DNA from: Longilinea sp.
GTDB taxonomy: Bacteria; Chloroflexota; Anaerolineae; Anaerolineales; Anaerolineaceae
Direction of reading: 5' to 3'
NCBI GenBank assembly: GCA_039810245.1
Contig: JBDHWQ010000023.1
Span: 603-64,602, forward strand
Length of the DNA stretch: 64,000 nt
Shown here: one piece after another, positions 24,692-64,000 of the stretch
Numbering within the stretch: position 1 is the stretch's first letter
Layout: each line of letters begins with the position of its first letter
Program-made: the position numbers and the translations under genes
Notes under the pieces: model-generated
Database searches by the model: none
Told to the model about the DNA's origin: nothing
The model's input: the letters and a program-made list of their open reading frames with translations, nothing else

Positions 24692-27220
24692 TTATTCAGA
24701 GTCCCGTATTCGTCTGTAGAACCACCGCTTTGTCATCTCGGCTGTGAAGAAATACAATACCACGATACTAAAAATCACCAGCAGGAGCGGCAGCGAGAGT
24801 GGAATGAACCCCAATAAACTGGCGAGCGGTGAATATGGAAGGTACAACGTGAACACGAGAACAAAAGCTGTCATGATTAACATAGGACGGCTGGGTTTGC
24901 TGTGAGTAAATGGAAGCCGGGTGCGTACTGCAAACACTACGATGCCTGCTGAAAGAACCGATTCGACGAACCAGCCGGTATGAAAAGTTTCCTGATTCGC
25001 CTTTATCACCCACATCAGCACTGCGAATGTAGCATAATCAAACACCGAGCTGAGCGTGCCAAAGATCAGCATAAAATGACGGATAAAGCCAATATCCATA
25101 CGCCGGGGTTGCTCTACGAGCATATCATCCACATTGTCGCTGGCGATGCTCATTTCGGGCAGGTCAGTCAGAAAATTGATCAGCAATATCTGTTTGGGCA
25201 GCATGGGAAGAAACGGCAGAAACAGGGATGCTCCCGCCATGCTGAACATATTGCCAAAGTTAGCGCTGGTGGCCATGAAGACATACTTCAGCGTGTTCGC
25301 AAAAGTCTTACGCCCCTGAACGATGCCATCGCGCAGCACGTCCAGATCCTGTTCGAGCAGCACCAGATCGGCGGCTTCCTTGGCCACATCCACTGCATTT
25401 GCTACGGAGATGCCCACATCCGCGCTGTGCAGCGATGGCGCATCGTTAATGCCGTCGCCCATGTAGCCTACCACGTGCCTGCGCTTCTTGAGCGCCAGGA
25501 TGATGCGTTCCTTTTCGTTGGGATCGACCTCTGCGAAAATGGTGGTTTCTTCAACGGCGTGCCAGAGTGCTTCATCCCCCAGGCTTTCCAAATCTGAGCC
25601 GGTTAACACTTTGGCGTTTTCGAACCCCACAACCTGACCGGTATGGCGTGCTACCAGTTTGTTGTCGCCCGTGATGATTTTGAGCTGAACGCCCAGCCTG
25701 GCCAGCTCCTGGATGGTTTCCTTAACCCCAGATTTGGGTGGATCGAAGAACAACAGGAACCCCTGAAAGGTCATCTCGCTTTCATCGGCCGTGGAATAGG
25801 GATGTTTCTGCGCGCTGGCGGGTTTGGACGCGACCCCTAAGACGCGAAACCCTTGACCGCTCCACTGCTCAAACCGCTCCTGCACCGCTGCTCGCATCAC
25901 GCTGTCCAGCGCTTTTTCCTGATTGCCGCTCTGCGCTCGTGAGCAAACGGCAAGCACATTTTCCAGCGCTCCCTTGGTGACCATGATCGCGGTTGAATCT
26001 GTCCCTCGGGCAACGACCGTCAGGCGCTTGCGAATGAAATCATACGGGATTTCATCTACTTTTGAATAATCCTGTGCCCCATCGGCTCCCATGTGGATAA
26101 TGGCCTCATCCAGCGGGTTGGCCAGTCCGGTCTGCATGAAAGCATTCAGGTAGGCAAGCAGTTTCACCTGCTCGGATGGCTCGCCGTTCACATTCAGGGC
26201 GCCGTCAAGCCGTATAACGCCCTCAGTCAGTGTGCCGGTCTTATCGGTACAGAGAATATCCATGCTGCCGAAGTTCTCAATCGACTCCAGCCGCCGGACT
26301 ATCACGCCGTGCTTTGCCATTTCTTGCGAGCCTCGCGCCAGGTTGATGTTGATAATGGCGGGCAGAAGCTGCGGCGTTAACCCGACGGCCAGCGCGATTG
26401 AAAAAAGGAGCGAATCGAGTACCGGTTTGTGAAATAAAACATTGAAAAAGAAGATCCCGAAAACCAGGATGAACATGACCTCCGTTAATAAGTAGCCCAG
26501 CCGCTTGATGCCACGCTCGAACTCGGTTTCTGGCGGTCGCAGAGTCAGGCGATCCGCGATCTGGCCAAAGGCGGTATTCCGCCCGGTCTCAACGATCAGC
26601 ACTTTGGCGCTTCCACTGCGGACATTGGTACCCATGAAAACCGTATTGGTCCGTTCTGGCAGCCCGGCATTTTCGGCCACTACGCCAGGGGTTTTCTCCA
26701 CCGGAAATGTCTCGCCAGTCAGCACCGCCTGGTTGACGAAAAAATCATTTGCTTCGAGCACCAGCCCATCAGCAGGAACCAGGCTGCCGGCGGAAAGTAA
26801 AACTACATCACCGGGGACGATTGCTTCCGTCGCGATGGAAATGGTTTTTCCGTCGCGCAGTACATTCGTCTGAAACGAGAGCTGCGCTTTTAACTTCTCA
26901 GATGCGGTATTGGCATTGAATTCCTGGAAGAAACTGAGCAAGGCGCTGCCCATTACAATTAGCAAAATGATAACCGCATCTGTCCAATCCTGCAGAAAGG
27001 CCGAGATCACGGTGGCAGCCAGGAGGATGATAACAATCGGGCTTTTGAATTGGTTGAGAAACAGCCCGAACGGTGTGACCTTTCCCTTCGTGTGGATAAT
27101 GTTTGGCCCAATATGTCGCAGTGTCTCCTGCGCCGCCTGCGTAGACAAACCGGCGATCGTAGAGTTCACTTTTTGGAGTACGCTATCTGCAGGTTCGGAC
27201 CAAAAGGGAAGGGTTGCCAT
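24692..27220 (-). CDS. mgtA: Mg2+-importing P-type ATPase
   Basis: P-type motifs 'CTDKTGTLT', 'ITGDN' and 'MGDGINDAPSL'. The MgtA-type TM region is 'PFLPMLPKQILLINFLTDLPE'. Confidence 0.88.
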   Translation of the reverse strand: MATLPFWSEPADSVLQKVNSTIAGLSTQAAQETLRHIGPNIIHTKGKVTPFGLFLNQFKSPIVIILLAATVISAFLQDWTDAVIILLIVMGSALLSFFQEFNANTASEKLKAQLSFQTNVLRDGKTISIATEAIVPGDVVLLSAGSLVPADGLVLEANDFFVNQAVLTGETFPVEKTPGVVAENAGLPERTNTVFMGTNVRSGSAKVLIVETGRNTAFGQIADRLTLRPPETEFERGIKRLGYLLTEVMFILVFGIFFFNVLFHKPVLDSLLFSIALAVGLTPQLLPAIININLARGSQEMAKHGVIVRRLESIENFGSMDILCTDKTGTLTEGVIRLDGALNVNGEPSEQVKLLAYLNAFMQTGLANPLDEAIIHMGADGAQDYSKVDEIPYDFIRKRLTVVARGTDSTAIMVTKGALENVLAVCSRAQSGNQEKALDSVMRAAVQERFEQWSGQGFRVLGVASKPASAQKHPYSTADESEMTFQGFLLFFDPPKSGVKETIQELARLGVQLKIITGDNKLVARHTGQVVGFENAKVLTGSDLESLGDEALWHAVEETTIFAEVDPNEKERIILALKKRRHVVGYMGDGINDAPSLHSADVGISVANAVDVAKEAADLVLLEQDLDVLRDGIVQGRKTFANTLKYVFMATSANFGNMFSMAGASLFLPFLPMLPKQILLINFLTDLPEMSIASDNVDDMLVEQPRRMDIGFIRHFMLIFGTLSSVFDYATFAVLMWVIKANQETFHTGWFVESVLSAGIVVFAVRTRLPFTHSKPSRPMLIMTAFVLVFTLYLPYSPLASLLGFIPLSLPLLLVIFSIVVLYFFTAEMTKRWFYRRIRDSE

Positions 27221-54899: not shown

Positions 54900-55560
54900 A
54901 TAACATCACGCTATTGACTTCGTCGCTGGAGAAGACCACTTCTTCCTTACCGGTCAGCTTCTCCTGCACCTTGCGCACGATCAGGTCTAGGTGTGGCGGG
55001 TGCGCCACGTAATCCAGGTCGTCGGCGGGCACGGTGAGCACCGGGCATTGCACAAAGCCGGCAAACCACTTTTCGTACAGCCCGTTCAACCCTTCAAGGT
55101 AATCGGCGCTGATATCGCGCTCGTAATCACGCGCGCGCTGCTGGATGCGCCCCACCAGCGTGGGCACAGAGGCGCGCAGGTAGATCACCAGGTCGGGCGG
55201 GGGCAGAAAGTCGGCCACGGCCTCATACAGCGCGCGGTAGGTCTGCCAGTCGCGCTCGCTCATGCTGCCCTGCAGGTACAGGTTTTGCGCGAAGATCTCC
55301 GCGTCTTCATAAATACTGCGGTCCTGGATCACCGACCCCGGGAACAGGTACAACTGGTGATGGATGCGCAGGCGGTGCGAGAGGAAAAAGGTCTGCGAGT
55401 GGAAGCTCCACGCCGCCATGTTCTGGTAGAAGTCCGACAGGTACGGGTTTTCGGTCACCGGCTCGTAGAACGGCTGCCAGCCCAGGCGCTCGCACAGCAT
55501 CCCCACCAGTGTCGATTTGCCCACGCCAATATTACCTGCCACCGCGATGAATTTTTTCAT
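54898..55560 (-). CDS. deoxynucleoside kinase
   Basis: Trimmed to 'MKKFIAVAGNIGVGKSTLV' (P-loop). Has 'FYEPV..NPYL' and 'DRSIYEDAEIF'. Confidence 0.85.
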   Translation of the reverse strand: MKKFIAVAGNIGVGKSTLVGMLCERLGWQPFYEPVTENPYLSDFYQNMAAWSFHSQTFFLSHRLRIHHQLYLFPGSVIQDRSIYEDAEIFAQNLYLQGSMSERDWQTYRALYEAVADFLPPPDLVIYLRASVPTLVGRIQQRARDYERDISADYLEGLNGLYEKWFAGFVQCPVLTVPADDLDYVAHPPHLDLIVRKVQEKLTGKEEVVFSSDEVNSVML

Positions 55561-55585
55561 GGCTCCCTCACTGCGACCGCGCGCT

Positions 55586-56371
55586 TTATGGAATTTCCCC
55601 GGCCAGCTCTTTCTGAATGATTTGCTGGAAGACCTCAAACGGCTGCGCGCCCACTACCGCCAGCCCGTTGATAAAAAAGGTCGGCGTGGATGAGATGCCC
55701 AGGTTGCTGGCAAAGTCAAAGTCGCCCTGCACCTCTTCACGCGTGCGATTCGTGCTCAGGCATTCCTGGAACTGGCCCAGGTCCAGCTTCAAATCGCTGG
55801 CGTACTGCTCGTACACCGCGTTGCCCAGCTCAGCGCCTTCCAACAGGCGCGCGTGGTACTCGTAGTATTTCCCCTGCTCGCCGGCGCAGTTGGCGGCCTC
55901 GGCGGCCGAGTTGGCGTTGAAGTGGATATTGGACAGCGGAAAGTCGCGGTACACCAGGCGGATCTGGCCGGGAAAGGCTTTTTGCAGCTCCGGCCAAACC
56001 TCGGCGTGCCACTTGCGGCAGTAGGGGCACTCGTAATCGCTGAATTCGATCAGCGTGATCGGCGCGTCGTCCGGGCCGAGGGCGTAATCATCGTCCACCG
56101 GCACGTCATAGCGGCGCACGGCCTGCTGCTGCTGCGCATCCGGCTGCGCGTCGTCCTGCGCGGCGGGCTGGGCAGCGGTGGGCACGCCGCCGCCCGCGTC
56201 GACCGACACGCCGGAGCGGCCGTCGAGGCCCCAGAAGATGTACCCGGCGGCCAGGCCGAGCACGAAGGTGATGGGCAGCAGCGCCGCGAAAAATATCGAG
56301 CGCCGGAAGACGATCTGGTCTTCGCGCCGCGCGCTCGAACGGTCAGGTCGGGGGGTGGGGGAAGCGTCCAT
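55586..56371 (-). CDS. DsbA-family thiol:disulfide oxidoreductase, membrane anchored
   Basis: TM anchor, Gln/Ala-rich linker, and a thioredoxin fold with 'FSDYECPYCRKWH'. Confidence 0.8.
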   Translation of the reverse strand: MDASPTPRPDRSSARREDQIVFRRSIFFAALLPITFVLGLAAGYIFWGLDGRSGVSVDAGGGVPTAAQPAAQDDAQPDAQQQQAVRRYDVPVDDDYALGPDDAPITLIEFSDYECPYCRKWHAEVWPELQKAFPGQIRLVYRDFPLSNIHFNANSAAEAANCAGEQGKYYEYHARLLEGAELGNAVYEQYASDLKLDLGQFQECLSTNRTREEVQGDFDFASNLGISSTPTFFINGLAVVGAQPFEVFQQIIQKELAGEIP

Positions 56372-56414
56372 GCCGGGATTATACCTGAGAAGCCGCGCGC
56401 GGGTGTTCTTTCTA

Positions 56415-56452
56415 GAAAAAAAGACACCCCGGGCGCGGGCGCGTGGGGTGTT
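56415..56452 (-). terminator. rho-independent terminator downstream of the ferredoxin gene
   Basis: On the minus strand, ACACCCC...GGGGTGT forms a GC-rich stem followed by CTTTTTTT. A second perfect 10-bp hairpin, GCAAGGCAGC/GCTGCCTTGC, lies at 56461-56487. Confidence 0.6.
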
Positions 56453-56512
56453 GAATCACAGCAAGGCAGCATTTGCGGCTGCCTTGCATCACTTTTCCGG
56501 ATGGGAGAGAAA

Positions 56513-56686
56513 TTATGCGGGGCCGATTGCGCCGGTGGGGCAGACATCCGCGCACGAGCCGCAATCCTGGCACAGGGCAGGGTCAACGATATAGTTGCCG
56601 TCGTCCTGCAGCGAGATCGCGCCTTCGGGGCATTCGGTTTCGCAAGCGCCGCACTGGATGCAATCGCTGTTAATCATGTAGGCCAT
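56513..56686 (-). CDS. 2x[4Fe-4S] ferredoxin (57 aa; below the ORF-track length cut-off)
   Basis: My own translation gives MAYMINSDCIQCGACETECPEGAISLQDDGNYIVDPALCQDCGSCADVCPTGAIGPA*. It has two CxxCxxCxxxCP motifs, and an AAGGA RBS lies 7 nt upstream. Confidence 0.85.
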   Translation of the reverse strand: MAYMINSDCIQCGACETECPEGAISLQDDGNYIVDPALCQDCGSCADVCPTGAIGPA

Positions 56687-56847
56687 GGGGAACTATCCTT
56701 TCAGAACATGCTTCGGGTGAAATTGAAGACGTTCCGAGGATAGCACAATCAGACAATTCATGTCAACATTTCTTCTTCGTCGTTTGTCACCGAATCCGGC
56801 TGGAATATGTCATATATTTTCTGTCGATTTGATCGCCGCGCGCATCC

Positions 56848-56876
56848 TTGACATCATCCCAAGCTGGCAATATAAT
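56848..56876 (+). promoter_or_regulatory. consensus sigma-70 promoter for tRNA-Asn
   Basis: TTGACA at 56848-56853, a 17-nt spacer, and TATAAT at 56871-56876. The tRNA starts 15 nt downstream. Confidence 0.7.
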
Positions 56877-56890
56877 ACGGGGGCAATTGA

Positions 56891-56964
56891 TCCTCGATAG
56901 CTCAATTCGGCAGAGCGGGCGGCTGTTAACCGCTAGGTTCCAGGTTCGAGTCCTGGTCGAGGAG
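56891..56964 (+). tRNA. tRNA-Asn (anticodon GTT)
   Basis: Cloverleaf folded by hand. Acceptor TCCTCGA/TCGAGGA, D-arm GCTC/GAGC, anticodon stem GGCGG/CCGCT with loop CTGTTAA, T-arm CCAGG-TTCGAGT-CCTGG, discriminator G. CCA is not encoded. Confidence 0.9.
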
Positions 56965-56979
56965 CCTACATCTTCTGCA

Positions 56980-57013
56980 GCCTCGGGCAACGCCGGCCCG
57001 AGGCGATTTTTTT
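56980..57013 (+). terminator. rho-independent terminator after tRNA-Asn
   Basis: GCCTCGGGC-AACGCCG-GCCCGAGGC forms a 9-bp stem followed by GATTTTTTT. Confidence 0.75.
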
Positions 57014-57102
57014 AAGGTTCAGGTTCCACGCCCCCATTGAGGGGATTGTATTCGCGTCCTGGTCGAGGAGCCTACATCTTCCGCAGCCTCGGGCAACGCC
57101 GG
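57014..57102 (+). repeat. degenerate second copy of the tRNA-Asn 3' half plus trailer
   Basis: AAGGTTCAGGTTCCACG, then a ~24-nt insertion, then GTCCTGGTCGAGGAGCCTACATCTTCCGCAGCCTCGGGCAACGCCGG. The last part matches 56950-56996 with one substitution. Confidence 0.8.
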
Positions 57103-57413
57103 TTTGGGACGCCCTCTTTTTAAGATACGAAGCTAGCTTTCCAGGCGAAAAACTGTTGAAATTGAGCAAATTGACTTGCGTTATCTTGATCTGTTGCCCG
57201 TTCTGACTTCTTACCTATTAAAGGATTGCCGGCCTAAGGGACTGCGGAATTATGGCGAACTGTCTGCAGAAGATGCCGATCAGATCGATCCAATCATCAC
57301 CCATCTTGCCACTATGTCCATTGAACTGACTCGTCTTTTTCCTGCTGGACCGGATGACCGTTCGTCCGACAAAAATAAGTGAGGGTTCGCCATATTTTTG
57401 TTACCTTCTTCGC

Positions 57414-57533
57414 TTGACGCCTGCCAAGTAAGGCTTAGAATTAGAGAAGCGATGAGGCTCGCTAGGAAAGTATCGAACCGCCGACCACGGCTGATAGCTT
57501 CTGTCTGTGACCCCACAAGACAGAGGCTTTTTT
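57414..57533 (+). ncRNA. candidate leader / small RNA element E1 (promoter, 5' hairpin, CTGATAGC box, intrinsic terminator) upstream of eno
   Basis: TTGACG at 57414-57419, 16 nt, TAGAAT at 57436-57441. Hairpin AGCGA-TGAGGC-TCGCT at 57448-57463. CTGATAGC at 57491-57498. Terminator stem AGCTTCTGTCT/AGACAGAGGCT followed by TTTTTT, ending at 57533. A related inverted copy lies at 62281-62389. Confidence 0.4.
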
Positions 57534-57557
57534 AATACCTGCCCTCATTCTCGTTGA

Positions 57558-58862
<1,305 letters not shown>

Positions 58863-58884
58863 ACGATCCAAAAACGAAGGAAAG

Positions 58885-58913
58885 AGGGCCGGGCAAAGTG
58901 GCCCGGCCCTTTC
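58885..58913 (+). terminator. possible terminator hairpin after eno
   Basis: AGGGCCGGGC-AAAGTG-GCCCGGCCCT forms a 10-bp stem, but only a short T tract (TTT) follows. Confidence 0.4.
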
Positions 58914-58930
58914 ATAATAGGATTGCGCGT

Positions 58931-59278
58931 ATGAACACCACACTGATTTTGGTGCGGCACGGGCAGACGGATTGGAACCGGGTTGAGCGTTCCCGCGGCC
59001 GGTATGATATATCGCTCAATTCGACCGGCCTCGAACAGGCTCGCCGGATCGCGCAGCGATTGGCGAAGCGCTGGAATCCGGCGGCCATTTATTCCAGCCC
59101 GTTAAGCCGGGCTATTCAAACCGCGGATGCGATTGCTCTCGCCTGTAATCAAAAGGTAATGCCCGAAGCGGGATTAACGGACATCGATTATGGCGCATGG
59201 CAGGGTATGTCACCTATGGAATACCGTGTGATAAACATCTTCGCCAAAACTGGTCTGCAGGGGTTCGGCCTCGAATAA
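58931..59278 (+). pseudogene. 3'-truncated histidine phosphatase (GpmB/CobC-like) gene
   Basis: 'MNTTLILVRHGQTDWN' carries the catalytic RHG motif, and 'IYSSPLSRAIQTA' follows. Family-like sequence stops near 'DIDYGAWQGMSP' (about aa 95 of an expected ~200). The ORF tail overlaps the 3' end of the convergent low-GC MutS-like gene. Confidence 0.65.
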
Positions 59279-60697
59279 CTTGAAGGTTCGCTTTCCACCG
59301 GATTTCCTCTCCGCGCGCAGGAAAATGGTATTTCCTATGCCTCGTTCGTAAAACGAATGGGCAAGCTCATATTGGTGGGTGACAAAAAACACCTTAATTT
59401 TCCGTTCCAGCAGCGCATTTGTAATTTGCCTGCCGATCTCCGAGCCTTCCCTTTCGTTGGTGGCCGCGAAAGATTCATTGAACAGCACCATCGAATTGGG
59501 GGTAACATGGTCGGCAATATCGCTCATCCGGCTGAGCTCTTCGTCCAGTTTCCCGCTTTTCATGGTGACATCTTCTTCACGCTTATAGTGGGTAAAGATT
59601 CCCGTGCTAAGATTCGCGCTGAAGTCGCTGGCCGGAACGTACATTCCACACTGCATCATCAGTTGGGCCAGGCCGATACTTCGCAAAAATGTCGATTTTC
59701 CCCCCTGGTTGGCTCCGGTGATCATCACAACGTCTTTATGATCTGCGTTCACGTCATTGCCGACGACCTTCTGTTTCATGGTCAACGCCAGGCAGACGTC
59801 GTATAACCCATGGAAAGCATGCCTTCGTTCTGCTGCCGGCGCTGGCGAGGGGAAACAGATGGGACTTTCCCACTGCGCGAGCTGCTCGTGCAGATTCAGA
59901 CATCCGACATAAAATGCCAGCTCGATCTGCAGCATTTTGAAGAAGTTGTCGATGTGATCCGCCGACTGCGCAAGCGCGTTGGCAACCAGGTTTATTCCAG
60001 TGTCCTTTAATTTCCCCAAAGCCCGTGCACCGGATTCGTCTCGGTCACTGATATAGAAGAAATATGTAGGATTCTTCCGATTAAGAATGTCCTTCCACCA
60101 TTTCAAATTTTTTGGCCGGCGAAGGATGTAGTTCGTTCCTTCATTCCCTTGCCCTAAATCAGCGCTGATCAGCACGCCATCCCGAAACTTGAGCTCCTTC
60201 AAGTGATTTTCTACAATGGCAAAATAGTCGTCATCCAGCTCTTTTTGAATCATCGTAAAAAATCTGCGGAAACCTTCCGACTCAAATTCACGGGAATATG
60301 TGTCCGCTATCCCTTTTAGCCTACGCAGCAACCCCACAAACATGTTCATCAACTCAAGCGCGCCACTGAGGACGCCGCTTGGATAATACGTAAATATTCC
60401 CATCCAATGCTGCCGTTTATTTTCCATGGCCTCAATCGGGATTTGGAAGATCTCTCGAATGACAGAAGGGAAACGCAAGCAGTCCTTAAGAATATTTTGC
60501 CGGTAAAGGATGGTCTCAATCTCATCCGAGCCTGACAGGACGGCCTTCCAGGCAATATCCATTAGAAAGCGGTCGCCGCGCGCCATCGCGTTGAACAACG
60601 TATTTAATTCCAGGTCCTGGACCAGGGCTTTTTCGTTAACGGGTAAAGGGTGTTCCAGATCAAAGTCCTGGTCGCGAAACATCAGATATGCTTTCAT
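59210..60697 (-). CDS. MutS-family ABC-type ATPase, core + domain V only (495 aa), partner B
   Basis: Walker A is 'ITGANQGGKSTFLRSIG', Walker B-like is 'MVLFNESFAATNEREG', and 'FFVTHQYELA' follows. No mismatch-binding N-terminal domain and no Smr or nuclease C-terminus. Low GC. Its start overlaps the stop of the upstream partner (ATGA at 60694-60697). Confidence 0.8.
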   Translation of the reverse strand: MKAYLMFRDQDFDLEHPLPVNEKALVQDLELNTLFNAMARGDRFLMDIAWKAVLSGSDEIETILYRQNILKDCLRFPSVIREIFQIPIEAMENKRQHWMGIFTYYPSGVLSGALELMNMFVGLLRRLKGIADTYSREFESEGFRRFFTMIQKELDDDYFAIVENHLKELKFRDGVLISADLGQGNEGTNYILRRPKNLKWWKDILNRKNPTYFFYISDRDESGARALGKLKDTGINLVANALAQSADHIDNFFKMLQIELAFYVGCLNLHEQLAQWESPICFPSPAPAAERRHAFHGLYDVCLALTMKQKVVGNDVNADHKDVVMITGANQGGKSTFLRSIGLAQLMMQCGMYVPASDFSANLSTGIFTHYKREEDVTMKSGKLDEELSRMSDIADHVTPNSMVLFNESFAATNEREGSEIGRQITNALLERKIKVFFVTHQYELAHSFYERGIGNTIFLRAERKSGGKRTFKLFEAEPLQTSFGEDVYHTVFHR

Positions 60698-62268
60698 CCC
60701 TGAATACGCTCCTTTAATTGGCTGTACGTAAGGTAATACTTCTCGGCAATACTGATCGCATATGCCAGTCCATCCGATGGTCTCCGGACAATCTTGAAGG
60801 TTCGCAAGGCTGGATTTTCGGGCACAATGGTACTGACCATGCTGACCGTTTTTTCACTCAGAGAAGACAGCTCATCGATAAACGTCACGCATATACACAG
60901 TAGATCCAATGCAATGATCTGCTCCATGATCTTCTTGCTCAGAAAGACCGCATCTTTCAACGTTGTGGAGGTGAAGATTTCGTTCATGATAATGATGCTC
61001 TCTGGCGTTGCATGATTCAATATTTCATGAATCCGCACCAGGTCATCGTGCAGTTTCCCGCGTAAATTTTTGATCTTTTCTTCTTTTTCAAAATGGGTAA
61101 AGAGTTGATCAAACAGAAAAAGCTGGGCTTGCCGGCCTGGGACTGGTAAACCTAAACATGCCAGGTAGTGGAGCTGCCCGAACATGCGGGCGAAGGTGGT
61201 CTTTCCACCTTGATTTGGGCCTGAAATGACCAGGATGCGCTCACTCCCCTTCAAGGTAAAATCATTGCAGACCACTGGCGCACCTTCGGCGACCAGCTTA
61301 TTGGCTAAAGCAATGTCGAAGCCGTCCACTTCGAAAATTTCTTTCGTTTGACCGGAAACTGCCGGGTAACAGAATTTCAGGCCGGCCTGTTTAATTCTTC
61401 GGATGTACTCCAGGTACGCAATATAAAACTGGATCTCACGATCAAAAATACGAATCGTCTCATCCATGAAATGTTGGTGCTTCTCACAATAGGCATCCAG
61501 TGTGGAAAAAACTTCTGGGTACAATCTGGCAACGCAGTCCAGAATTTGCGCTTCTACATGATTGAACCCCGAACCCTTGATATTTTTGACTTTGTAATCC
61601 TTTACAGCCCCCTGTTTGAACTTTTCAAAGGTTCGCTCAACCTCTTCGCTGTAATCACTCTCCAATTCATATTTTCGAACCCCAACGCGGTTCCCTTTAA
61701 TGATGATGGCATAATGAATCGTTGATTGGTCGACCTTGCATTTCGCGGTCTCTTGTTCAAGCGACTGGAAATTCTCCGCATTCACATAGCGGTCCAGGTA
61801 TTCTCGAAAAGCAAGCAAACCACGCGATTTCAGCGCAGCCCGCGACAAATCCCGTCCCAGGTTCCTAATCGCTTCGCAATAAATAACAGCGGCTTCCAAA
61901 AACCAGCCGGCTTTATGATAGTGATAATCAAGCTTGCCGGCCATGCCAAGATACCGGCGGACAATCACCATTTTTTGTGCAAATATATCGATGCGCTTCA
62001 GTACTTCGTCGCTTTCTAAATCCTGCGCGACCTCCTGCCGGTACTGGATGGTTTCAACATTATGGAAAGGCAAATAGAAAAATGGTTTCAGGTTATATTC
62101 TTGCCGGCTCGCGCAGACGGCATCGACGACCTGATCCAAGTTTAGATCAACGAAGAAAGGTGGCATTTCTGCCGCTTGGATTTCCTCATAATTTGGAATG
62201 CGCTCAAAGAGGATGCTTTGGAAGCGCATATTGTTTTTCATTCCGCTCGCAATTTCCTTTAAGTTCAT
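60694..62268 (-). CDS. MutS-family ABC-type ATPase, core + domain V only (524 aa), partner A
   Basis: Walker A is 'ISGPNQGGKTTFARMFG', Walker B-like is 'IIIMNEIFTSTTLKD', and 'ICVTFIDELS' follows. No domain I and no Smr. Low GC. A GAGGG RBS lies directly after the E2 terminator. Confidence 0.8.
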   Translation of the reverse strand: MNLKEIASGMKNNMRFQSILFERIPNYEEIQAAEMPPFFVDLNLDQVVDAVCASRQEYNLKPFFYLPFHNVETIQYRQEVAQDLESDEVLKRIDIFAQKMVIVRRYLGMAGKLDYHYHKAGWFLEAAVIYCEAIRNLGRDLSRAALKSRGLLAFREYLDRYVNAENFQSLEQETAKCKVDQSTIHYAIIIKGNRVGVRKYELESDYSEEVERTFEKFKQGAVKDYKVKNIKGSGFNHVEAQILDCVARLYPEVFSTLDAYCEKHQHFMDETIRIFDREIQFYIAYLEYIRRIKQAGLKFCYPAVSGQTKEIFEVDGFDIALANKLVAEGAPVVCNDFTLKGSERILVISGPNQGGKTTFARMFGQLHYLACLGLPVPGRQAQLFLFDQLFTHFEKEEKIKNLRGKLHDDLVRIHEILNHATPESIIIMNEIFTSTTLKDAVFLSKKIMEQIIALDLLCICVTFIDELSSLSEKTVSMVSTIVPENPALRTFKIVRRPSDGLAYAISIAEKYYLTYSQLKERIQG

Positions 62269-62280
62269 CGGCCCTCACTC

Positions 62281-62389
62281 AAAAACAAAAAAGCCTCTAC
62301 TGGAGCGTGCGCTCAGTAGAGGCTATCAGTCGGGTGACAGTTTTGGCGAGCCTCATCGCCATGGATCTATTCGATTAATTAGAATTATA
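62281..62389 (-). ncRNA. candidate leader / small RNA element E2 upstream of the MutS-like operon (inverted relative of E1)
   Basis: Read on the minus strand: TATAAT (62389-62384), hairpin GGCGA-TGAGGC-TCGCC (62360-62345), CTGATAGC (62329-62322), terminator stem AGCCTCTACTG/CAGTAGAGGCT followed by TTTTTTGTTTTT. The ATG at 62268 is 12 nt downstream. Confidence 0.4.
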
Positions 62390-62521
62390 CTCGAAAACTT
62401 TGCCGATGCACTTTTATTGACATAGGTTTCTGTGTACAACGCACGCTCTGGTTTGGTTTTGTTTTCGGAACCGGTGTCCTACTTTTCTCGATCTGTCTAC
62501 CCTTCGAAGATTTTCCGCAAT

Positions 62522-62588
62522 CCGCCAGGTTCCAGGTTCGAGTCCTGGTCGAGGAGCCTACATCTTCCTGTGCCCCAGACAACGCCGG
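62522..62588 (+). repeat. direct repeat of the tRNA-Asn 3' half plus trailer (att-like)
   Basis: 62527-62567 is identical to 56935-56975 (41 nt, AGGTTCCAGGTTCGAGTCCTGGTCGAGGAGCCTACATCTTC). Looser similarity extends to ...AACGCCGG. Confidence 0.85.
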
Positions 62589-62609
62589 TCCGATGATAGA
62601 CTGGCGAAA

Positions 62610-62700
62610 ACCTAACCCCCCGGCCCCCTTCCCGACCCGGGAAGGGGGAGCGGAAAGCGTTGATGGTTGCGAAACTGCCTATGCTCCGCGGGGGTTAGGT
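62610..62700. repeat. nested GC-rich palindromic structure adjacent to the att-like repeat
   Basis: The outer 11-bp stem is ACCTAACCCCC (62610-62620) / GGGGGTTAGGT (62690-62700). The inner 10-bp hairpin is CCCCCTTCCC (62624-62633) / GGGAAGGGGG (62639-62648). Confidence 0.55.
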
Positions 62701-62884
62701 CTGCTGGCACGGTACGAAACGAATTACCAAACGAAAAGAGGCTTTTAGGAGCCTATGAGAATAAGCAGCCGGGGGCGCTTGCAATGGAGCCATTTCCGGC
62801 GCGTGCTGGCAGCATGCCTGTGGCGCCATCCACACCCGATCCTGGCGTATAATATCCCTAATCCCACCCCCAAGGACTCCCCCC

Positions 62885-63361
62885 ATGGCTGACACCTACC
62901 CCACCGATCCTACCCCCGACGAGCGCATCCTGGCGGCGGCGGCGCACGCCTCGATCCTCATCCCTATGATGGGCTTCTTCGCCCCGCTGATCATCTGGAT
63001 TTTGCAGAAGGACAAATCGCGCTTTGTGGCTTTCCAATCGCTGCAGGCGCTCGCCTACCAGTTCGCGCTGCTGGTGGGGTACATGCTTGGGATGCTGTGC
63101 TACGGGGTATCCTTCTTCCTGCCGTTCCTGTTCATGATCCCGCTCTCAGGCCAGCACACCAGCTCGCAGGTGGATAGCATCCTAGGGCTGGGCTTCCTGC
63201 TGCCCTTCGTCATGCTGCTGATCGTCGGCCTGGCCGCGCTGGCCGCCATTGTCTATGGCATCGTCGCGGCGGTGAACGCCTTTCAGGGCCGGCCATTCCG
63301 CTACTGGATCGTCGGCGCGCAGGTGGAGCGCTTTACCCGCCCGCAGCCGGCGGCCGCCTGA
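62885..63361 (+). CDS. DUF4870-like small membrane protein
   Basis: 'ERILAAAAHASILIPMMGFFAPLIIWILQKDKSRFVAFQSLQALAYQF' and about 4 TM helices. TATAAT lies at about 62849. Confidence 0.65.
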   Translation: MADTYPTDPTPDERILAAAAHASILIPMMGFFAPLIIWILQKDKSRFVAFQSLQALAYQFALLVGYMLGMLCYGVSFFLPFLFMIPLSGQHTSSQVDSILGLGFLLPFVMLLIVGLAALAAIVYGIVAAVNAFQGRPFRYWIVGAQVERFTRPQPAAA

Positions 63362-63453
63362 TCGCACAGCGCAGGGGCAATTTGCTTGCTTGAAAAATGA
63401 CTTCCGGCGCGCTACCATAGCAGTACGCAATTCGCTTATACGGAGGGGTAGCC

Positions 63454-64000
63454 ATGACGCATCCATCGCGCGCCGGCGCGCTGCGGCTTACCGTGGGGGC
63501 ACTGGGCCTGGTGGTCTTCCTCGCGCTGGTGGCCGGCCTGCTGCTGTTTAACTACACCAGCGGCCTGGCGTTGATCGCCGGGGCGCTGGTGGCTTTAGCG
63601 CTCATCGGCCTGGTGCGCTTCCTGGCGCGGCGCGGCTGGAAAGCCTGGCTGCTGGCAGGGCTGGCGACCGGGTTCGGGCTGGCTGTTTTTCTGGTGCTGT
63701 TGTTGTTTACCCGGGACCGTTATTACAGCGGGTATCCCAACCTGATCTGCCCCATCGCCAGCTATCACGCTGTGGTTGCGCCGGATTCCACCCGGCTTAA
63801 TGGCTTTCAGATCCAGGAGACCGTCACCCTGGTGGAAGGCGGGGAGTTTACCCCACCGGATACCTGGTCCGCGGAAATGGTGGACAACCAGCCCGGCTAC
63901 CGGCTGCCCGCCGGGCAGGCGGCGATTGACAGCCGCGGATTCCTGCTCAAAGAAGCGCGGGTCGACCCATCGGTGACCTGCAATGAAAGCGCGCTGGTCG
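63454..64000 (+). CDS. membrane protein, 3' end beyond the window (partial)
   Basis: Not in the ORF track because there is no stop in the window. My own translation from the ATG at 63454, which follows GGAGGGG, gives 'MTHPSRAGALRLTVGALGLVVFLALVAGLLLF...'. It is open to the window end and has 3-4 TM helices. Confidence 0.5.
   Translation, partial: MTHPSRAGALRLTVGALGLVVFLALVAGLLLFNYTSGLALIAGALVALALIGLVRFLARRGWKAWLLAGLATGFGLAVFLVLLLFTRDRYYSGYPNLICPIASYHAVVAPDSTRLNGFQIQETVTLVEGGEFTPPDTWSAEMVDNQPGYRLPAGQAAIDSRGFLLKEARVDPSVTCNESALV

Follow-up and report, generated by a model that had tools for sequence, protein, structure and literature searches.

Two overlapping minus-strand genes encode short MutS-type ATPases

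We analyzed a 64,000-nucleotide (nt) stretch of DNA from Longilinea sp. (assembly GCA_039810245.1, contig JBDHWQ010000023.1, positions 603 to 64,602), referred to as the window, which contains two adjacent genes for MutS-type ATPases that very probably form an operon controlled by a fluoride riboswitch. The products are named MutS4A and MutS4B after the family to which they are assigned below; lengths are given in amino acids (aa).

60694..62268, minus strand: MutS4A, 524 aa; Walker A GPNQGGKT, Walker B MNEIF, Phe463; stop codon overlapping the MutS4B start (ATGA)
59210..60697, minus strand: MutS4B, 495 aa; Walker A GANQGGKS, Walker B FNESF, His441 at the H-loop position

A preliminary description of the window had reported two overlapping minus-strand genes of 524 and 495 aa, each with a MutS-type P-loop and an Asn-Glu (N-E) Walker B strand, and without either the N-terminal domain of MutS1 or an Smr domain. 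Both open reading frames (ORFs) and their 4-nt ATGA overlap at 60694-60697 (AGGGATGAAAGC on the minus strand) are confirmed, and in the translations both P-loops, GPNQGGKTTFARM and GANQGGKSTFLRS, are present, as are the Walker B strands IIIMNEIF and MVLFNESF. The domain content is equally as described: MutS_V is the sole Pfam domain of MutS4A (residues 347-480, E 1.5e-17) and of MutS4B (residues 325-485, E 1.3e-21), and neither protein has a Pfam match to MutS_I, MutS_II, MutS_III, MutS_IV or Smr. NCBIfam searches of both proteins returned MutS1, MutS2 and KamC matches that are all sub-threshold, with the MutS2 family TIGR01069 scoring 62-80 bits against a cut-off of 400. Domain I and the connector domain II of MutS1 are accordingly missing from the Pfam matches, and the equivalog scores fall far under their cut-offs. 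MutS4A and MutS4B are 27% identical to each other, and this identity is confined to the C-terminal 240 aa representing the ATPase half.

Fluoride riboswitches head the pair and a neighboring enolase gene

In the fluoride riboswitch class, rising cellular fluoride together with Mg2+ binds the aptamer, the terminator does not form and transcription reads through into the downstream genes. The whole window holds two riboswitch matches of this class, located in the mutS4AB leader and in the leader of an enolase gene, each accompanied by an intrinsic terminator:

62310..62369, minus strand: fluoride riboswitch aptamer (RF01734) of the mutS4AB leader; Rfam 37.3 bits against a gathering score of 34, E 1e-6; our own covariance model R2, 62.2 bits
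62286..62324, minus strand: intrinsic terminator hairpin with U-run (U6) of the mutS4AB leader; folding -23.1 kcal/mol, z -3.4
57439..57510, plus strand: fluoride riboswitch aptamer (RF01734) of the enolase leader; Rfam 36.9 bits against 34, E 1.4e-6; our own model R2, 60.3 bits
57496..57534, plus strand: intrinsic terminator hairpin with U-run of the enolase leader; folding -20.3 kcal/mol, z -5.2
57414-57441: promoter-like site (TTGACG, 16 nt, TAGAAT) of the enolase riboswitch

The aptamer of the mutS4AB leader ends 41 nt 5' of the MutS4A start codon on the same strand. In both leaders, the 3' end of the aptamer shares bases with the 5' arm of the terminator hairpin, which constitutes the expression platform. 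An aptamer overlapping a terminator is the usual transcriptional ON-switch layout of the crcB-motif class (Weinberg et al. 2010, PMC2864571). We consider it very probable that the mutS4A-mutS4B operon is under fluoride riboswitch control and lies within a fluoride island, fluoride-dependent induction as such being predicted from sequence. The preliminary description had envisaged a module with no linked effector and a role in defence, plasmid maintenance or recombination control, which does not agree with the riboswitch control and the fluoride-regulon neighbors found here and in the relatives.

The gene pair and its riboswitch recur in many phyla

Relatives of both proteins number in the thousands in databases, the best ones being 63-94% identical, and a full HMMER scan at E <= 1e-30 yielded 1121 representatives of 50% clusters. 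When one genome per species was scanned, at least 571 genomes proved to have a MutS4A relative, and the best 80 loci among these were analyzed. These belong to Chloroflexota, Desulfobacterota, Firmicutes, Verrucomicrobiota, Acidobacteriota, Alphaproteobacteria, Actinomycetota, Bacteroidota and others, more than ten phyla overall, and include one archaeal case, a Woesearchaeota metagenome-assembled genome (MAG). MutS4B directly follows A in 77 of the 80 loci and the two genes share a 4-nt overlap (ATGA or GTGA) in 69, which supports the earlier proposal of an obligate pairing and makes a heterodimer likely.

Searching the 80 loci (1.15 Mb) with our own covariance models gave 155 riboswitch matches, with at least one in 74 loci. 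On the same strand as A, a riboswitch lies at most 350 nt upstream in 46 loci and farther upstream in a further 27, where the intervening genes are mostly co-directional enolase, MFS and DUF6062 genes. Within 8 kb of the pair, the recurrent genes are enolase (25-32 loci), MFS (18-23), CrcB (16-17) and His_Phos (15-16). The contigs closest to the window show A and B followed by a convergent HEAT_2/Zn-ribbon ORF, in some cases His_Phos_1, and enolase, with CrcB, DUF190/CBS, P-type ATPase and Na+/H+ exchanger genes nearby. In all six close loci scanned, Rfam places a riboswitch 100-150 nt upstream of A, and additional ones stand before enolase, DUF6062 and a CBS/P-type ATPase pair.

DUF6062 genes are located directly behind fluoride riboswitches in several loci, and DUF190+CBS genes and small HEAT_2/Zn-ribbon ORFs are likewise recurrent (L005, 14314-15039; L014, 7978-8874; L027; L048; L070); all three appear to belong to the fluoride regulon as members yet to be characterised. 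In L040, L071 and L029, between five and eight matches to the fluoride riboswitch fall within 17.5 kb, which points to large multi-operon fluoride islands. In the Woesearchaeota MAG (L073; 144-3377 and 6629-6868), the same pair is preceded by a riboswitch lying 96 nt upstream of A, and the locus has two others. Two database proteins, P0270 (1026 aa) and P0357 (800 aa), contain A-like and B-like halves in one chain and may represent genuine fusions or else artefacts of a frameshift at the ATGA overlap.

The pair has the organization of MutS4A/MutS4B and very probably belongs to a known fluoride regulon

The organization that the preliminary description took for an uncharacterised two-gene system has already been published. 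MutS4A and MutS4B were defined as proteins with the MutSac domain only, encoded by adjacent genes in which the A stop overlaps the B start (Lin, Nei and Ma 2007, NAR; PMC2190696). They were reported from five bacterial and two archaeal species, with a patchy distribution and likely horizontal transfer, and fluoride is unmentioned in that paper (PMC2190696). The window pair is MutS4A/MutS4B by gene organization and domain content, matching the definition as adjacent, overlapping paralogues with MutS_V only. Its relatives show the same patchy spread, with more than ten phyla, a Woesearchaeota MAG and 46 plasmid records. A phylogenetic grouping with the named MutS4 members (Thermoanaerobacter tengcongensis, Thermoplasma volcanium, Ferroplasma and Mycobacterium yongonense OEM_51400 and OEM_51410) has indirect support from a Thermoanaerobacter MAG locus (L023), with a 65% identical A protein and the same layout, and from the presence of enolase in the M. 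yongonense island. What differs from the 2007 account is the number of species genomes found here and the tie to fluoride riboswitches.

The family is equally part of a described regulon, mutS having been included in the list of genes that lie downstream of the crcB motif (PMC2864571). The window shares with the fluoride riboswitch regulon the aptamer with overlapping terminator, and mutS-annotated genes, enolase, CrcB, antiporters and phosphatases are listed or observed as its members; the window differs in that its island contains no fluoride exporter, and the literature label for the MutS genes is only 'mutS / DNA repair'. A further reference for this regulon is Baker 2012. The 'MutS4' genes and the 'mutS of the fluoride regulon' are the same genes, widespread and without an assigned function since 2007. 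The link to fluoride was noted in 2010 and has since dropped out of recent accounts, mutS genes being omitted from recent fluoride-resistance reviews (PMC11139923). At this locus, a family that has already been described recurs within a known regulon.

On Klebsiella plasmids, the pair lies beside the gene set of an experimentally verified resistance operon

Forty-six plasmid records carry the pair and 21 of these plasmids are conjugative, among them conjugative plasmids of Klebsiella, Enterobacter and Citrobacter. In K. pneumoniae NZ_CP017986.1, one riboswitch heads an operon of a cation:proton antiporter, uspA, A and B, and this operon is convergent to a second riboswitch followed by ppaC-uspA-eno-gpmA-crcB plus a P-type ATPase gene. 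The ppaC-uspA-eno-gpmA-crcB-ATPase operon was found by experiment to make Enterobacter cloacae FRM resistant to fluoride; it is located there on GI3 and is under a fluoride riboswitch (Liu 2017, PMC5533749). The Klebsiella plasmids thus have the same gene order as the E. cloacae operon, convergent to antiporter-uspA-mutS4A-mutS4B, whereas the island in the window has only the enolase, a phosphatase remnant and the pair. On Rhodococcus, Burkholderia and Rubrobacter plasmids, the pair is surrounded by CrcB, CLC-type channel, enolase, MFS, USP and antiporter genes.

The K. pneumoniae locus (L096, 6942-18835) is part of a conjugative IncFIB/IncHI1B plasmid.

Both subunits carry an altered Walker B motif and the H-loop is asymmetric

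The AlphaFold2 (AF2) model of MutS4A (predicted local distance difference test, pLDDT, 87.6; predicted template modeling score, pTM, 0.83) combines long lever helices (71-182 and 237-294) and a small beta-hairpin tip (186-199) with the ATPase domain and a C-terminal pair of helices. Foldseek aligns this model with the cores of MutS, MSH2/3/6 and MutS2 over approximately 500-600 columns at E values of around 1e-16. The clamp tip of MutS4B is net positive (+3.8) within an otherwise acidic protein.

The N-E Walker B, noted for both proteins in the preliminary description, is family-wide wherever the motif could be located, being present in 72 of 72 A and 67 of 67 B sequences; D-E was never observed. 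In addition, Phe463 of MutS4A aligns with His728 of E. coli MutS; it is invariant in 33 diverse A sequences and present in 67 of 72 loci. MutS4B retains the corresponding His441, which is invariant in 40 sequences. The top PDB sequence match of MutS4A is the E. coli MutS D693N variant (PDB 3k0s), which has lost Mg2+ from the site, binds ATP about 15-fold more weakly (Lebbink 2010, PMC2857095) and has an ATPase that is no longer stimulated by mismatches and is strongly Mg2+-dependent (PMC2857095). D693N is the same Walker B Asp-to-Asn change as in MutS4A and MutS4B. In E. coli it is an engineered defect of a mismatch-repair protein, whereas in the pair it is natural, apparently invariant and found in both subunits. 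The invariant N-E Walker B and the asymmetric H-loop offer mutational handles, and the enterobacterial plasmids represent tractable systems.

MutS2 (RqcU) resembles the pair in having a MutS core without a mismatch-binding domain and a dimeric ATPase, and the structural match extends over the whole length. In contrast, MutS2 forms a homodimer, carries KOW as well as Smr domains and has D-E at Walker B, while both domains are missing from the pair and its motif is N-E.

Possible functions of the MutS4 heterodimer

Translational coupling would provide equal amounts of A and B for assembly into a MutS-type heterodimer. Each subunit would combine a helical lever and a very small clamp tip with an ABC-type ATPase and helices at the C-terminus, and would have no mismatch-binding or nuclease domain. 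The dimer would be asymmetric. Asn replaces the Mg2+-coordinating Walker B Asp in both subunits, and the H-loop His is in addition missing in A. From these features we infer a 1:1 asymmetric heterodimeric, ATP-driven clamp with altered Mg2+ handling.

MutS2 and MSH4-MSH5 act on branched or stalled DNA intermediates. By analogy, the MutS4 pair may function as an ATP-switch clamp on such branched or stalled DNA, with the altered Mg2+ site permitting continued cycling when Mg-fluoride poisons P-loop ATPases. We propose this role tentatively; a DNA clamp heads the ranking of target candidates, followed by ribosome rescue and then enzyme reactivation. A broader formulation, which we regard as doubtful, would make the pair a dedicated fluoride-stress machine in which the Walker B Asp-to-Asn change and the His-to-Phe change in A keep the ATP switch working during a rescue task on DNA, ribosomes or enzymes such as enolase. 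If true, this would assign a function to a widespread orphan branch of MutS proteins and show that defence against fluoride has a further layer besides export and the overproduction of enzymes.

Several points weigh against this overall explanation, from fluoride control of the pair to a fluoride-tuned DNA clamp. Tuning of the N-E site to Mg-fluoride conditions, or to fluoride tolerance, is read from the motif itself, and DNA as the target is argued from homology with other MutS proteins. MutS2 acts on ribosomes, and KamC, a MutS_V-type ATPase, is annotated in NCBIfam as an enzyme reactivase. The clamp tip of MutS4A is not basic, and the MutS4B model, predicted from an alignment of database matches and giving the same structural matches as MutS4A, is of moderate quality (pLDDT 70). 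An upstream riboswitch is absent in 5 of the 78 loci that have enough upstream sequence. Our searches of the accessible literature found no functional study of a fluoride-linked MutS, and high resistance in E. cloacae FRM was regained through six other genes, MutS genes being unmentioned in the paper and its supplement (PMC5533749).

The structural matches also bear on a role in ribosome rescue, in which the A/B dimer, like MutS2 (RqcU), would take hold of ribosomes that have stalled or collided and use ATP to split them, and would be induced as fluoride stalls translation GTPases. The best structural matches include MutS2 cores and the complex of MutS2 with a disome (7qv3 and 7vuf for A; 9a5o and 7qv3 at the top for B), the architecture of lever, small clamp and ATPase without domain I is MutS2-like, and one Firmicutes locus has the pair approximately 2-3 kb from tmRNA, smpB and RNase R. 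However, the Smr and KOW domains are lacking, the neighbors of the pair are mainly ion transport and glycolysis genes instead of translation genes, and the proximity to tmRNA is confined to one lineage, which leaves ribosome rescue rather unlikely.

An enzyme target would fit the frequent association with enolase. The heterodimer could act as a protein reactivase, releasing a tightly bound Mg-fluoride-phosphate inhibitor from enolase or other poisoned enzymes at the expense of ATP, in analogy to KamC. NCBIfam KamC matches MutS4B with the same architecture (profile positions 307-432 of 508). Enolase is the most common neighbor (25-32 of the 80 loci); it stands co-directionally between riboswitch and pair in L046, L052 and L059 and is directly adjacent to the pair in the closest relatives. 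The KamC family (NF052383) nevertheless scores only 46 and 75 bits against a 300-bit cut-off, no better than MutS1 and MutS2, and over half of the loci lack an enolase gene within 8 kb. Enolase is moreover common under fluoride riboswitches in general (PMC11139923), and we consider reactivation improbable.

A comparably improbable alternative, proposed for the MutS4 operon of Mycobacterium yongonense, is that the pair promotes homologous recombination in general, independently of fluoride. M. smegmatis carrying that operon produced more and longer rpoB recombinants (Kim et al. 2017, PMC5742357), though colony counts were small and the evidence comes from a single heterologous assay (PMC5742357). 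The M. yongonense island combines the MutS4 signature with enolase and NADH-dehydrogenase/hydrogenase genes (PMC5742357), which are typical of the fluoride regulon, and general recombination leaves the riboswitch linkage in most loci unexplained. The identity of MutS4 with the mutS of the fluoride regulon places the M. yongonense recombination claim in a different frame.

A stand-alone anti-phage defence or plasmid/element-maintenance module without a linked partner, as considered in the preliminary description, would be consistent with a patchy, horizontally transferred pair that occurs on plasmids and in a low-GC (guanine-cytosine) island. We judge it very improbable, as PADLOC returned no match for A and only marginal P-loop matches for B (E 6e-4 or worse), no significant defence match in total, the phage collection contains no close relative, and the pair keeps company with fluoride-regulon genes in place of defence genes while a fluoride riboswitch gates its expression. 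A frameshifted or fragmented single MutS2 gene was rejected as a candidate and retains a vanishingly small probability: databases contain rare fusions of A with B (P0270, 1026 aa), but A and B are each a full MutS core with its own P-loop, are 27% identical and lack Smr, and the two-gene layout with the same overlap is conserved in 69 of the 80 genomes.

In M. yongonense, the genes OEM_51290-51410 have a fluoride-regulon-like content and lie in the island credited with driving recombination (PMC5742357).

The pair resides in a small, partly decayed island at a tRNA-Asn gene

The remaining features around the pair delimit the segment in which it resides:

56891..56966, plus strand: tRNA-Asn (GTT), intact, on the putative attL side; ARAGORN; Rfam tRNA 64.9 bits
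57036..57107, plus strand: partial direct repeat of the tRNA-Asn 3' end and downstream bases, 74% to the reference copy; repeat search, family D1
57176..57382, plus strand: short ORF, 68 aa; 3' part homologous to a 150-aa ORF of relative locus L014 (L014 7291-7743)
57582..58862, plus strand: enolase, 426 aa, riboswitch-controlled copy; Pfam Enolase_N and Enolase_C
58898..59278, plus strand: truncated histidine phosphatase (His_Phos_1, phosphoglycerate-mutase-like); Pfam match covering profile positions 1-92 of 194
59215..59216: deletion junction, 787 bp absent relative to L014 (L014 4664-5450); blastn against L014 and L015, and alignment of the MutS4B C-terminus
62522..62593, plus strand: partial direct repeat of the tRNA-Asn 3' half and downstream bases, 88%, on the putative attR side; repeat search, family D1

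DNA identity of 90% to L014 and L015 (blastn) is limited to positions 57218-59214 and 59217-62427. The 68-aa ORF represents a truncated remnant at the island edge, because the homology to L014 begins at window position 57218. Enolase adjoins the pair also in L007, L011, L014 and L015. The histidine phosphatase had been described as a host gene truncated by the cassette; this does not hold, because the truncation results from a 787-bp internal deletion relative to L014 and L015, and the gene is a member of the same conserved cluster. His_Phos_1 is full-length in L014 and L015 (207-218 aa), and the homology of the window to L014 stops at 59214. Lost with the deletion are the HEAT_2/Zn-ribbon ORF and the 3' part of His_Phos_1; MutS4B also loses its last four codons, which are replaced, its C-terminus reading FHR in place of the FQNEL of the closest relatives.

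The GC content is 44-53% across the pair and 60-67% in the flanks, so that the contrast noted in the preliminary description stands, while the difference is smaller than the 42-48% against 65% stated there. The tRNA-derived repeat reported at the cassette boundary is likewise present, with tRNA-Asn-derived copies on both sides of the segment. Low GC content, the flanking repeats, the island-limited identity to L014 and L015 and the 46 plasmid records agree with horizontal acquisition. Overall, the locus is best explained as a small fluoride-response island at tRNA-Asn that was acquired horizontally and has partly decayed, consisting of a riboswitch-controlled enolase, a truncated histidine phosphatase and the MutS4 pair, and in itself an ordinary instance of such islands. 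The tRNA-Asn site is specific to this genome, because eight of ten relative loci have no tRNA gene beside the pair and the other two have different tRNAs.

The tRNA-Asn 3' end is present three times, in one intact tRNA and two partial repeats, and no integrase ORF was seen in the ORF lists for 55000-64000. This arrangement looks like a decayed tRNA-targeted island and is possibly the trace of two successive insertions. Elsewhere in the window, with no riboswitch nearby, an 842-aa P-type ATPase (24692-27220, minus strand) is 34% identical to the ATPase of the fluoride cluster in L007.

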